From: a virus
Lineage: Duplodnaviria > Caudoviricetes
Direction: 5' to 3' (one strand)
Virus record (IMG/VR): IMGVR_UViG_3300043443_000105
Coordinates: 1 to 42,686 of that record
DNA length: 42,686 nucleotides
The position numbers and the translations under genes are program-made. The notes under the pieces are model-generated. The model worked only from the letters and a program-made list of their open reading frames with translations, was not told the DNA's origin and searched no databases. Positions 20,946 through 36,588 of this stretch are shown piece by piece (position 1 is the first letter of the stretch; each line of letters begins with the position of its first letter).

Positions 20946-21446
20946 TTAGGCGCTTTGTTGACCAGCGTCGGCTACGTGATAAATGATTCTTCCGCTTACC
21001 ACACCAGCAATTGCATTAGCAGCACCTTGAGTATTAGTAACAACAACTAAGTTAGTTGCGTTAGCTGCATTACCCAAAGAAGCACCGCCGCCTGTACCAC
21101 CAACAGTAAATACTGTACGAGCAGATACGTTACCAGCAGAAACAAAACCAGTAGGAACGTTTGTGCCTAGGGTAGTAGTTTGACCAGGACCAACGCTGAT
21201 TAGTGGGGTAAACCCTACGTTAGCTGTAGCATTACCGCCGCCACCGCTAGAAATAATAACTTCAGTTACTACTGCGTTAGCAGGAAGAATTAAAGCTGAT
21301 CCGCCAGAAACGTTAAGAACGTTTGCGGTTGCTGCAGTATTTGCAATATAGAAGGGGACTGCCATAACCATGGAGCCTGCTTCTGCAGTGCGTGTTTGAT
21401 CTCCACCAGTGGAGCGCCATACGGCTGAGGTAGTTGATGTTGCCAT
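20946..21446 (-). CDS. putative capsid decoration/structural protein
   Basis: Start set to ATG 21446 after an AAGGA RBS; G/A/T/N/V-rich; follows the major capsid gene. Confidence 0.6.
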   Translation of the reverse strand: MATSTTSAVWRSTGGDQTRTAEAGSMVMAVPFYIANTAATANVLNVSGGSALILPANAVVTEVIISSGGGGNATANVGFTPLISVGPGQTTTLGTNVPTGFVSAGNVSARTVFTVGGTGGGASLGNAANATNLVVVTNTQGAANAIAGVVSGRIIYHVADAGQQSA

Positions 21447-21455
21447 TTTAAATTG

Positions 21456-21528
21456 TCCTTCATACAAAGTTCAGCCCATCAATCGTGTATGCGTCCGCTG
21501 GGGCGGTTTGACAGGCGATTCACCCAGA
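21456..21528 (-). ncRNA. putative kissing-loop/pseudoknot cis-regulatory RNA
   Basis: Stems CUGGG/CCCAG and CAUACA/UGUAUG; 9-bp loop-loop pairing GCCUGUCAA/UUGAUGGGC with two G-U pairs that work only on the minus strand; abuts the RBS. Confidence 0.6.
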
Positions 21529-21550
21529 TAAATCAAATCTTACAACAAAT

Positions 21551-21578
21551 AAAACAAAAAGGGGGGATTTCTCCCCCC
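21551..21578 (-). terminator. Rho-independent terminator after the major capsid gene
   Basis: GGGGGGA-GAAA-TCCCCCC followed by TTTTTGTTTT on the minus strand. Confidence 0.9.
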
Positions 21579-21583
21579 GATTT

Positions 21584-22489
21584 TTAGGCTCCTGCGGAAC
21601 CGAACATTCCCAATGGATCCGAGAATCCAAATGAGTAACGCTCACGTGCTTTATAACGTACGTTGCCTGTGTCGAAGTCCCCATCCATAGAATTCTGGAG
21701 TGGTGTACGAACAAAGTGCTTCATACCGTTAGGTACATCAGTGCACAAGAACCATGCATTGGTGTCGGTCAGATAGTGGTTAATTGTGTAACCTTCTGGG
21801 ATCGAACCATTGTTCTTAATTGCATTGATGTCGTTGTCGTTAGTACCAACACGGAGTTCGGTTTCTAGCAAACGAGTTGCAACGAACTGTAGTGCAGGTG
21901 GCACGATCAACTTACGTGGTTTGGAAGCAATCAACAGTCCACGCTCATCAGTCCACAAGCTGATTTGAATAACGGCGGCTTCTAAAGAAGTCTCGTTAAG
22001 GTCAGCAGGGGTTGTTGGGATGTTACTGTTAGTACCGCCAGAAACCAAGGGGTGGCTTGCGCTGAATAAAGGCTGACCATCACCACCAACAGCAGCGGTA
22101 AAGCCAGTATTTAATACAGAAGCAGCACGAACTTGCTTGGTATACGCCATGGAACGAGCTAACGCCTTGGTATAACGACCAGATAGGCTGTCATACAAGT
22201 TGTCCTCAATTGCCTCTTCTGTTAAGGAGAAGCCTTGAGCAATCGTTACGTGGGTATAGCGAGCTGTAAATGCCTCTTGTGCATTGTCATAAGCGATGGC
22301 AGAACCTTCGTTTTTGACTGGTGCAGCTGAGAAGCCAGACAGTTTTACTTCTTCTTCAAAAGAACGCTCAGAGGTTTCTGTTTCATAGATCTCTTTGTGT
22401 TCTTCACCGTAGCGAGCATACTCCAAACCGAACAAAGCGTTCAAGCCTGGGAGGAGCTCTTTTAGTAGTTGGGCACGAGAAATAGCCAT
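21584..22489 (-). CDS. major capsid protein (HK97 fold)
   Basis: MAISRAQLLKELLPGLNALFGLEY..EEAIEDNLY..PRKLIVPPALQF..GDFDTGNVRYKARERYSFG. Lies after the scaffold and is followed by a strong terminator. Confidence 0.88.
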   Translation of the reverse strand: MAISRAQLLKELLPGLNALFGLEYARYGEEHKEIYETETSERSFEEEVKLSGFSAAPVKNEGSAIAYDNAQEAFTARYTHVTIAQGFSLTEEAIEDNLYDSLSGRYTKALARSMAYTKQVRAASVLNTGFTAAVGGDGQPLFSASHPLVSGGTNSNIPTTPADLNETSLEAAVIQISLWTDERGLLIASKPRKLIVPPALQFVATRLLETELRVGTNDNDINAIKNNGSIPEGYTINHYLTDTNAWFLCTDVPNGMKHFVRTPLQNSMDGDFDTGNVRYKARERYSFGFSDPLGMFGSAGA

Positions 22490-24615: not shown

Positions 24616-25026
24616 TTAGATAAATTTACGCTTGATGCCCCGTGGGTCTTGTACTACAGCTTCCACAGAATCATCGTTAATCAAACGGAACTCACGGTCG
24701 TGAATTACCAATCTAGTACCTGCATTTGGTCTAACCAAAACAAAATCACCTTCTTTACACCATGCTCCATTTGGGAAACGGACAGGATCTTTATAGCAAT
24801 CTGCCCCCATCTTCACTACAAATAGCACTGTAGATAAGAGTTCATCATGCCGACGGGTTTCATCTGATTTGAGAATCCCACTATCAAAGGCTTCTTCTGC
24901 TTCTGGTATTGCACATAGTATGCGGTAGCCTCTAGGTTCAGGCAGTTGTTGTGCCCGCTCCTCAGCTGTTTTCTGCATCACAGCAGCTAAGTCTACTGCC
25001 CGTGATAAATCCAAAGTTTCACTCAT
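24616..25026 (-). CDS. groES: GroES-like co-chaperonin
   Basis: PRGYRIL..SGIL..VVKMG..KEGDFVLV..GTRLVI..FRLINDDSVEAVV matches the Cpn10 pattern. Confidence 0.8.
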   Translation of the reverse strand: MSETLDLSRAVDLAAVMQKTAEERAQQLPEPRGYRILCAIPEAEEAFDSGILKSDETRRHDELLSTVLFVVKMGADCYKDPVRFPNGAWCKEGDFVLVRPNAGTRLVIHDREFRLINDDSVEAVVQDPRGIKRKFI

Positions 25027-34177: not shown

Positions 34178-35290
34178 ATGAAACAAACCGCAGATCAATT
34201 ATTTTCACAATCCCTTGACGAGGTAGTCGAGTCGATTCTAGCGAATCCCGATGGTACTGTATTGGTACAGGGTCACATGGGTACAGGTAAATCTTCTATC
34301 CTTAAGATCTTGGCAGAGAAACTGCCCGATCATGTGCCGTGCTACTTTGACTGTACTACCAAGGACTTGGGCGATCTCATGCTACCTAAGATCCTACGGG
34401 ACGACAGTACCCAAGACTACGTTAAGTTTGTACCTAACGAGGAGATGGGTCTCCACCATGGCAAGCCAATCATCTTAATGATTGACGAGTTTGGTAAGGC
34501 GAATCCCGCAGTCAAGAACGGCATGATGCGTGTGATGCTCGAACGTGCCTTTGGTACAGACAAGATACCCAAGGGGTCTATCATATTTGCCACCACTAAT
34601 CTTGGTGGTGAGGGTGTTGGTGACTTACTCATGCCACATCACCGCAATCGTATTACTGTGGTGCGTATGAAGAAACCTACGGCAGTAGATTGGATAGAGG
34701 GGTATGCCTTCAACGCAGGGATACATCCTGCCATGATCTTATGGGTCAAGGAGGAGGGTGCGAGATTGTTCCAGTCGTATGAAGAGGTGGACAATCCTGA
34801 CGATCAGGTATCGGGTAATCCGTATATCTATCATCCCAAGTCGCAGAGACCTGCCTTTGTTACCCCAAGATCTTTGGAGTTGGCAAGTCGTTGGCTATGG
34901 GCTAAGGACAAGATCAGCGACAACGCATTGAAGTCTAACCTGATGGGTACTATCGGGGATCGTGCGGGTGCAGACCTTGGCGCATACATCAAACTTGTTG
35001 ACGAGTTACCCAAGCAAGACGAGATCAAGGCAGATCCTAAATCAGCCAAGATTCCTACAACATCTTCAGCCGTTGTGATGGTGGTGTATCGTGCCTTGGC
35101 TACCATGAGCAAGGAGTTTGTTGACCCATGGATGGAGTATCTGAACCGCTTGGACAAGGAGGCGCAGTCATTGTTTGCTATGCAGGTGCGCAATCCCAAG
35201 TACAACAAGCAAGGTGTTGTCATGACCAATAAGAAGTTTACACAATGGTGTATGGACAACAACTTCATGTTCAGCGCAGATAAGAAGTAA
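34178..35290 (+). CDS. AAA+ ATPase (MoxR/dynein-related clade)
   Basis: Walker A GHMGTGKS, Walker B ILMIDEFG, ATTN sensor 1 and TPRS sensor 2. Confidence 0.85.
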   Translation: MKQTADQLFSQSLDEVVESILANPDGTVLVQGHMGTGKSSILKILAEKLPDHVPCYFDCTTKDLGDLMLPKILRDDSTQDYVKFVPNEEMGLHHGKPIILMIDEFGKANPAVKNGMMRVMLERAFGTDKIPKGSIIFATTNLGGEGVGDLLMPHHRNRITVVRMKKPTAVDWIEGYAFNAGIHPAMILWVKEEGARLFQSYEEVDNPDDQVSGNPYIYHPKSQRPAFVTPRSLELASRWLWAKDKISDNALKSNLMGTIGDRAGADLGAYIKLVDELPKQDEIKADPKSAKIPTTSSAVVMVVYRALATMSKEFVDPWMEYLNRLDKEAQSLFAMQVRNPKYNKQGVVMTNKKFTQWCMDNNFMFSADKK

Positions 35291-35299
35291 GGGGGAGAT

Positions 35300-35413
35300 A
35301 TGTGCGACTTTGATTATTTGAAGTTCGGGTTATTTCTAATCGTGGTAGTGCCTGTATTGTCCATGACTTTTTTATTGGTATATGCGGGTTGGAAAATTAT
35401 AAGGAGTGAATGA
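35300..35413 (+). CDS. small membrane peptide (37 aa)
   Basis: GGGGGAG RBS; MCDFDYLKFGLFLIVVVPVLSMTFLLVYAGWKIIRSE. Confidence 0.5.
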   Translation: MCDFDYLKFGLFLIVVVPVLSMTFLLVYAGWKIIRSE

Positions 35414-36588
35414 TGCTAACAATCGGTAAACAACTTACCGCAGAGCAACGCATGTACAAGGCAACGACAGACTTGATAGGTTGTGACGAGTTTGTCGCCT
35501 TGGCAGGTGTTCTCATGGTCGGTAGTAAGAAAGTGGTGGACGATAAGATCACCGCATGCACTAATGGTCGTGACGAGAAGTATGGTCGTGGGTTTGTTGA
35601 TAGTCTCAATGATGCCGAGTTTAGATTTCTTATGCTACATGAGTGCTATCACAAGATGTATCGTCATCTAACAACGTGGCAAGATCTTCACAAGATAGAC
35701 CATGATCGTGCCAATCGTGCGTGTGATTACGTCATTAACCATAAACTTGTGCATTCTGAATCAGGCAAGTCAGGTTGGATCAAGATGCCTGATGGTGGGT
35801 GCTATGACGATAAGTACAAGGACATGAATGCCAAAGAAGTTTTCGACTTACTTGAGTCGCAAGATCAAGAAGGTCAAGGTCAAGGTCAGGGAACTGGCTT
35901 CGACGATCATGACTGGGAGGGGGCGCAGGAATTGTCCGATGAGGAACAGGAGAAACTCGCTAAAGAAATTGACGAGGCAGTACGTCAAGGCGCAGTCTTA
36001 GCGGGTAAGGTCGGGTCGGGTGGTAATCGAGACTTGACTGAACTCTTAGAACCTAAGAAGGATTGGCGAGAACTATTGCGTGAGTATGTTAAGACAACAT
36101 GTTCGGGCAAGGATTACTCAACGTGGCGCAAACCTAATCGTAGATATGTTGGCATGGACTTGTTGATGCCAAGTGCGATTAGCGAGGCTATGGGTGAGAT
36201 CGTGGTTGCTATTGATACGTCAGGATCTATTGGTCAGCGTGAACTGAACAACTTCCTAGGCGAGATCAAAGGTATCTGTGAACAAGTTAAGCCAAGCAAG
36301 GTGCATGTAATGTACTGGGATACAGCGATATGCCGTACAGAAGTGTACATGCAGGACGAACTCGACAACTTGGTGAAGTCTACTAAACCCGCAGGGGGTG
36401 GTGGGACTGATCCATCATGCGTACCACAATATCTTAACGAGAAAGGTATCAAGCCTGAGTGCGTGGTGATGCTAACCGATGGCTATGTCGGCGGTTGGGG
36501 TCAATGGTCTGTGCCTGTGTTGTGGTGCATCTTAAACAATCGGTCTGCAAACCCAAGCGTGGGTGTAGCAGTTCATATTGACGGCTAA
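35410..36588 (+). CDS. HExxH metallopeptidase-like plus vWA domain protein (DUF2201-like)
   Basis: TACTNG, HECYH, and MIDAS DTSGS..GGGTD..LTDGY. Confidence 0.85.
   Translation: MMLTIGKQLTAEQRMYKATTDLIGCDEFVALAGVLMVGSKKVVDDKITACTNGRDEKYGRGFVDSLNDAEFRFLMLHECYHKMYRHLTTWQDLHKIDHDRANRACDYVINHKLVHSESGKSGWIKMPDGGCYDDKYKDMNAKEVFDLLESQDQEGQGQGQGTGFDDHDWEGAQELSDEEQEKLAKEIDEAVRQGAVLAGKVGSGGNRDLTELLEPKKDWRELLREYVKTTCSGKDYSTWRKPNRRYVGMDLLMPSAISEAMGEIVVAIDTSGSIGQRELNNFLGEIKGICEQVKPSKVHVMYWDTAICRTEVYMQDELDNLVKSTKPAGGGGTDPSCVPQYLNEKGIKPECVVMLTDGYVGGWGQWSVPVLWCILNNRSANPSVGVAVHIDG

Follow-up and report, generated by a model that had tools for sequence, protein, structure and literature searches.

What does a folded RNA do between the terminator of a phage capsid gene and the ribosome-binding site of the gene that follows? 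How phages match decoration protein to capsid number has, to our knowledge, been little studied, and the question is raised by a viral DNA of 42,686 nucleotides (Caudoviricetes; IMG/VR record IMGVR_UViG_3300043443_000105), the whole of which is here called the window. A preliminary description, made from the letters of the sequence, had noted on the minus strand two hairpins whose loops could pair with each other, and had offered three readings: a cis-regulatory RNA setting the stoichiometry of the post-capsid genes, a protein-binding RNA, or a small ribozyme, perhaps corresponding to an orphan Rfam motif from aquatic metagenomes such as Polynucleobacter-1. The capsid gene is of the type found in HTVC023P, and phages of that type are described in the accessible text of PMC9599517 as widespread and among the most abundant pelagiphages.

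Genomic Setting of the Leader

The major capsid protein gene of the window (21584–22489, minus strand; 301 aa) is Mu gpT-like and of the HTVC023P type (phrog_371, major head protein, E 2.3e-24). Its product is 58–74% identical to the capsid proteins of Pag-Yong1, DSL-LC04, HTVC023P, HTVC027P, and CRP-901/902, with 64.5% identity to that of HTVC023P and 58% to the CRP-902 protein annotated “Mu-like prophage major head subunit gpT.” The gene is followed by a predicted intrinsic terminator (21551–21578, minus strand) made up of a G-C stem (21578–21561) and a U tract; among 153 distinct near-clade loci with the RNA, 125 show a hairpin followed by at least four U within 9 nt. Between the portal and capsid genes of the same head module lies a GroES-like co-chaperonin gene (24616–25026, minus strand; phrog_3188, E 8e-9). 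An oppositely oriented block of the window (34178–36588, plus strand) holds adjacent genes for an ATPase (phrog_1297) and a phrog_1314 protein (labelled HNH endonuclease).

Past the terminator is a predicted σ70-type −10 hexamer, TAAGAT (21537–21542, minus strand), from which transcription would start at about 21529–21530; a strict two-hexamer promoter scan does not list this site. In 62 distinct close relatives, the distance from the end of a −10-like hexamer to P1, the first helix of the RNA, is 8 nt in 29 cases and 9 nt in 13, and no other distance from 0 to 29 nt accounts for more than 6. This fixed spacing makes the RNA likely to be the whole 5′ leader of its own transcript in the close clade, where it would be transcribed from its own promoter. 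The promoter is not universal, since in several short and distant-clade forms the RNA comes immediately after the terminator, with no room for one. A single contig assembled from RNA runs bridges the capsid gene end, terminator, and leader, and is uninformative on transcript units, starts, ends, or levels.

The gene downstream (20946–21446, minus strand; 166 aa from the ATG at 21446), likely the regulated gene, is predicted to encode a jelly-roll capsid cement (decoration) protein. The protein has no PHROG match and its AlphaFold model is of low confidence (pLDDT 50.6), and Foldseek gave no match to that model at E 0.001 or better; both structure searches nevertheless put phage capsid accessory chains first, the top matches being the KHP40 cement protein (Z 8.5) and capsid chains of Pam1 (Z 8.0) and GP4 (Z 7.7). 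The DSL-LC04 homolog of the protein is annotated “cement protein.” Its body is detectably homologous to the jelly roll of the window in only 102 of 191 relatives, and cement-slot bodies range from 84 to 237 aa (10th–90th percentile). Genes in this slot combine widely differing bodies with a short N-terminal arm that is retained and mostly MAxTTFSGPV-like, which suggests a swappable capsid display module; the arm of the window protein itself differs from the common TTFSGPV type.

Insertions of over 300 nt behind the capsid gene occur at 30 of the 220 loci classified, and at all 30 the RNA adjoins the cement gene. Judged by gene order, the element is linked to the cement gene and not to the capsid gene. 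The interval between the capsid terminator and the leader promoter is itself an insertion hot spot, many of the inserts resembling, by eye, endonuclease genes of the HNH or GIY-YIG type (L003, L013, L015, L030, L072, L074, L078, L457, L463, L479, L509–L511, L515, L547, L553, L610, L620, and L644 are among the loci concerned).

Architecture of the Window Element

The element comprises 67 bases (21527–21461, minus strand) joined by four interlocked pairings. P1 (21527–21523 with 21502–21498) has 5 bp; Pa (21516–21508 with 21482–21474), the core stem, has 9 bp, two of them G-U; Pb (CCG 21506–21504 with CGG 21497–21495) has 3 bp and encloses the P1 3′ strand; and P2 (21491–21486 with 21466–21461) has 6 bp. 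The 3′ strand of P2 abuts the Shine-Dalgarno (SD)-like AAGGA (21460–21456), as read from the sequence, without pairing to the SD itself, and Pa ends 28 nt before the AUG. Two stretches are conserved as sequence: a junction (21493–21507) made up of the unpaired A21507, Pb with the enclosed P1 strand, and AC (21494–21493), and a (C)GA (21485–21483) directly before the 3′ strand of Pa. The 5′ strand of P2 (21486–21491) lies within an internal strand of 8–9 nt, whose counterpart in other forms of the element pairs with the start codon.

The preliminary description is confirmed in its minus-strand sequence, in the lengths of P1 and P2, in the 9-bp helix with its two G-U pairs, and in the placement of the end of P2, 21461 adjoining the AAGGA; the extra CCG/CGG pairing that it had put forward as possible also holds, being almost always paired and covarying in relatives (see below). 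Its drawing of two kissing hairpins had the right pairs and the wrong hierarchy: Pa, its “kissing” helix, and Pb form the constant core, P1 is optional, and P2 changes partner. It had also missed the −10-like site directly 5′ of P1.

Single-sequence folding is unremarkable (z-score +0.56 for 73 nt against shuffles, no better than chance, with a program that does not allow pseudoknots and whose minimum free-energy structure uses Pa and Pb but not P1 or P2), so the case for the structure rests on covariation.

Covariation among Relatives

The element is present at 69 of the 80 closest capsid loci in IMG/VR (66, plus L003, L020, and L038); the remaining 11 have no cement-type start within the sequence examined. 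In a MAFFT alignment not fitted to the structure (n = 66), the covariation score is 0.443, compared with 0.166 for shuffled sequences. Double-sided changes occur at 9/9 pairs of Pa (89.0% of cells paired) and 5/5 pairs of P1 (90.9% paired), and Pb is 98.0% paired, its middle pair alternating among UA, AU, and CG. When a covariance model was fitted to P1 and P2 only, it matched 75 of 100 chosen sources, all but the window lying outside the training set; in the resulting alignment, which includes start-codon forms, the unfitted Pa and Pb are 89.4 and 96.3% paired, and P1 and P2 91.1 and 61.0%, with double-sided changes once more at 9/9 pairs of Pa. P2 scores low here and lower still in the plain MAFFT alignment (32.4%) because it is misaligned and hence under-counted. 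Measured without alignment in 111 distinct elements, it averages 6.3 bp, against 4.5 bp in shuffled sequences (maximum 4.8 in 500 shuffles), and it occurs as 48 different helix sequences.

A blind test used a metagenome pattern that fixed only P1 itself and the flanks of Pb and allowed a Pb mismatch. Ninety-two of its 113 distinct matches lie in the phage slot, the other 21 being mostly chance; in these 92 the free Pb pair is complementary in 92/92, Pa averages 8.4 bp (shuffled 4.9), and P2 averages 6.6 bp (shuffled 5.0). The shuffles ignore the relatedness of the sequences, but the many distinct helix sequences together with the blind test make an artefact very unlikely all the same. Comparative analysis of the loci downstream of the capsid gene in relatives of the HTVC023P-like phage confirms that all four helices covary and that the element is real, and the conservation on which the preliminary description had staked its reading is present. 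One search pattern is estimated to match about 5400 IMG/VR stretches, 99 of the 120 examined having the structure; matches in genome collections fall in metagenome bins of many unrelated taxa, without host indication.

In 27 of 58 distinct long forms from L001–L080 (L011, L042, L050, and L059 among them; the window is not one of these), an alternative 5′ hairpin competes with P1 and shows compensatory variants. It is possibly a folding intermediate or a second state.

Kinship with the Orphan Motif Mu-gpT-DE

Rfam was searched with the window and 20 of its relatives, as the preliminary description had advised, and returned no hit. The identity with Polynucleobacter-1 (RF01718) that it had floated is not borne out: that motif was among those without a hit, and although it too is an orphan motif from aquatic metagenomes, the alignment rows in the accessible part of PMC2864571 look unrelated in sequence. 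Seven weak Rfam matches near the terminator were rejected as chance, driven by the terminator hairpin.

A small self-cleaving ribozyme processing the late transcript, the third of the original suggestions, seems most improbable. The compact double pseudoknot would suit such a ribozyme, and CUGANGA is found in 11 of 63 long forms. The hammerhead ribozyme has a fixed core of CUGANGA and GAAA around a three-way junction; in the long forms the CUG is a strand of the covarying helix Pb (CUG/CAG/CGG), not a fixed core, downstream GAAA occurs in only 4 of the 63, and neither motif occurs in the window, which has no Rfam ribozyme hit either. A hammerhead was rejected on these counts.

The suspicion of kinship to an orphan motif from aquatic metagenomes was nonetheless sound, the relative being Mu-gpT-DE (RF03012). 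This motif reportedly comes from the 2017 set of Weinberg et al., where its function is said to be unknown. Its Rfam entry has 53 positions and the type Gene; sRNA, and draws two nested helices ending at the AUG; extra covarying pairs are given in PMC7657543, the accessible text of which names no function. Mu-gpT-DE occupies the same slot in Roseobacter phages, between a Mu gpT-like capsid gene and a cement-type gene, and the phage family is the same; CRP-901 and CRP-902 carry RF03012 there (72.3 bits), and 118 of 121 Mu-gpT-DE pattern matches have a homolog of the capsid gene of the window nearby.

The two RNAs have a common core that reads stem, A, CNG…CN′G, AC, a strand mostly of 8–9 nt, RA, stem. 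They differ around it. The outer stem of Mu-gpT-DE has 4 bp and overlaps the SD, unlike the 9-bp stem of the window, which stops 28 nt short of the AUG; its inner hairpin is extended, whereas the 6-nt Pb loop of the window pairs with the 5′ end to form P1; and its internal strand, UAGCCA, pairs over the AUG, whereas that of the window differs in sequence and pairs before the SD.

Intermediate forms bridge these differences. The 220 classified loci are what remains of 283 after removal of 59 without a cement-type start and four with wrongly called starts (L455, L607, L635, and L649), and the form labels were partly set by eye because descriptor scans misclassified some loci. Form A, that of the window, has P1 and places P2 before the SD (138/220); form B, the Rfam type, lacks P1 and places P2 over the AUG (35/220); form C lacks P1 and places P2 before the SD (10/220); and form D has P1 and places P2 over the AUG (11/220). 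The element is missing at the remaining 26 loci, all of the distant clade (L504, L514, L516, L518–L523, and L529–L568), and is therefore dispensable. Form A occurs in both deep capsid clades, which are about 39% identical, and on a FastTree of 205 capsid proteins the target of P2 changes at least 10 times and the presence of P1 16 times. Since the intermediates C and D link the window element to Mu-gpT-DE, a pseudoknot core to which P1 may or may not be added describes it better than kissing hairpins do.

The window gives no RF03012 hit at the gathering cut-off (49 bits) or at E up to 10, and the model matched neither the 20 close relatives nor the long-form carriers HTVC023P, DSL-LC04, and ct7L0027; the window element is therefore not filed as a member of RF03012. 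A model built from 25 P1-less sequences (forms B and C) ranks the element first in the 42.7-kb window, albeit weakly (13.3 bits, E 0.19), and matches the element at 14 of 22 P1-bearing loci, accounting for 13 of the top 14 rows. The window element is likely homologous to Mu-gpT-DE and likely works as it does. We regard the long form as an uncatalogued, longer form of that motif. No published description of the long form was found in the literature covered, which took in seven supplementary files of PMC10690425, where the short motifs of the element and “gpT” are absent, and the main text of PMC5737381, where “gpT” is absent; files 1 and 2 of the former or the supplement of the latter may list the long form.

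Contact with the Translation Initiation Region

In 107 of the 119 long forms (forms A and C), no base separates P2 from the first SD 4-mer, the two either adjoining (0 nt) or overlapping. In form A, P2 ends 8–17 nt before the AUG in nearly all cases, a position inside the footprint of the 30S subunit. With this and the covariation, the preliminary proposal of a conserved, structured cis-element at the ribosome-binding site of a post-capsid gene is upheld.

The internal strand of the short forms can base-pair with the start codon and the codon after it (codon 2). When short forms were collected with a pattern that left this strand free (109 distinct among 120), it tracked codon 2 without exception: GCC with Ala in 69, CCC or ACC with Gly in 40, and no discordant case. 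The covariation is seen in RF03012-type elements such as that of L206 (2496–2552) and those of L335–L454. A capsid tree was built for the 61 rows in which enough of that protein was available; on it the two traits undergo 15 changes apiece, and independent pairs agree 8/8 (p 0.008); both codon-2 states occur in 7 of 28 downstream-protein families. Part of the association could come from module exchange. One internal strand is thus directed at the initiation region in either of two ways, before the SD in the window form or over the AUG and codon 2 in the Mu-gpT-DE forms, and that a single core strand reaches the region by both routes is hard to explain except by control of initiation in cis. 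From these sequence comparisons, cis action on translation initiation is very probable, through which the element would control the stoichiometry of the post-capsid genes. At the same slot of Planktothrix phage Pag-Yong1 (L201, 2401–2515) is a different-looking knotted leader without the shared core, the helices of which, by eye, would also cover the SD and AUG.

The same data bear on the idea of a trans-acting small RNA or a structural or packaging RNA, in which the 9-bp helix would form between molecules, as a helix does in the pRNA of phage phi29. A likely promoter of its own, P1 strands that are palindromic in several relatives, the location in the head module, and the sRNA label that Rfam gives to Mu-gpT-DE would all accord with such an RNA. 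No terminator-like site lies between the element and the ATG, however, and the element runs into the SD, pairs with the AUG and covaries with codon 2 in its short forms, and follows the cement gene through insertions; a role in trans is accordingly judged very unlikely.

A helix that occludes the initiation region is conserved, as it is in a translational riboswitch or a protein-gated operator. The preQ1, SAM-II, and guanidine-III (ykkC-III) riboswitches act on translation through a pseudoknot that closes on the ribosome-binding site and a short conserved junction, and a riboswitch for a small molecule or ion, with the junction as aptamer and P2 as expression platform, would have the same layout; it would also accommodate the survival of the core when the body of the downstream protein is replaced. 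Unlike those riboswitches, the window element has no Rfam riboswitch match and no metabolic gene context, every structured match examined lies in the same phage slot with no metabolic genes, and few bases are conserved. We consider a riboswitch unlikely, if less so than a role in trans.

A Possible Off-Switch for Cement Synthesis

The leader likely controls the amount of cement protein by blocking the landing site of the ribosome. How P2 would be held is suggested by the junction, a candidate binding site: about nine of its bases are fixed although the helices change freely, a pattern that such a site would be expected to show. P2 is short and long-range and would likely need stabilizing; taken together with the fixed bases, this leads us to infer an off state stabilized by a ligand. 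In the mechanism that we favor, and hold at a little under even confidence, the double pseudoknot is a translational off-switch: formation of P2 would block ribosome loading at the cement gene, and a phage head-assembly protein would bind the conserved junction and hold P2 in this off state. The first guess for that protein is unassembled cement protein, which would exert negative feedback as soon as the sites on the capsid are occupied. Homology of the cement body is patchy and the arm of the window protein atypical, so that simple self-binding by the cement domain could not be universal, and free capsid or scaffold protein is a real alternative.

A precedent for such an operator exists in phage T4, where soc is a capsid decoration gene. 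According to the accessible text of PMC3014915, the SD and AUG of soc are sequestered by RNA structure, and a leader pseudoknot allows gp32 to repress the mRNA that encodes it. The gene 32 operator serves as a model for the window as a phage leader pseudoknot tied to translational repression; it differs in being, as described there, a simple pseudoknot of two stems that lies well before the start and nucleates cooperative gp32 binding over an A+U-rich tract (PMC3014915). In the window the knot has four helices and extends as far as the initiation region, and its gene encodes a structural protein.

The distribution of terminators partly fits this off-switch. In the distant clade, a U-tailed terminator precedes the cement gene at 14 of 31 loci with the RNA versus 0 of 20 without it; the other 17 RNA loci have a hairpin lacking a U tail (12) or no hairpin in the stretch scanned (5). 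The association accords, in part, with a requirement to bring cement output back into step with capsid number once the two genes are transcribed separately. At the RNA-less distant-clade loci, the cement-slot gene starts 12–60 nt after the capsid gene, with no U-tailed terminator.

The principal competitor is a knot without a ligand, which would set a fixed translation rate, shield the 5′ end against decay, or both, with no switching. P1 begins about 2–3 nt after the inferred start site, so that the 5′ end would be buried; RNA-less loci often keep a plain hairpin there (11/20); and the bases conserved at the junction could serve purely in tertiary contacts. Against this, P1, the very helix that holds the 5′ end, is the dispensable part, being absent from forms B and C; a fixed attenuator needs no conserved junction sequence; and the compensatory variants of the alternative 5′ hairpin, which would exclude P1 in nearly half of the long forms compared, suggest two states. 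A ligand-free knot is thus rather doubtful, although less so than a riboswitch.

Significance for an Abundant Phage Group

The protein-gated off-switch may be of wider occurrence than the window. The core common to the long form and Mu-gpT-DE could be a widespread modular phage switch that senses head assembly (or a small molecule), gates cement synthesis, and has been repeatedly re-wired between the pre-SD region and the start codon, a generalization that we put forward tentatively and with less assurance than the off-switch itself. Cultured carriers are at hand for both versions, HTVC023P, HTVC027P, and DSL-LC04 for the long form and CRP-901/902 for the short one. An orphan entry typed as sRNA, RF03012, becomes a testable cis-regulator, one whose start-codon helix the Rfam model, stopping at the AUG, is too short to hold. 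The long form was missed by Rfam despite the thousands of IMG/VR stretches estimated to match a single pattern. Should the modular switch prove true, a phage group that is among the most abundant in aquatic habitats would possess a regulatory RNA of a new class.
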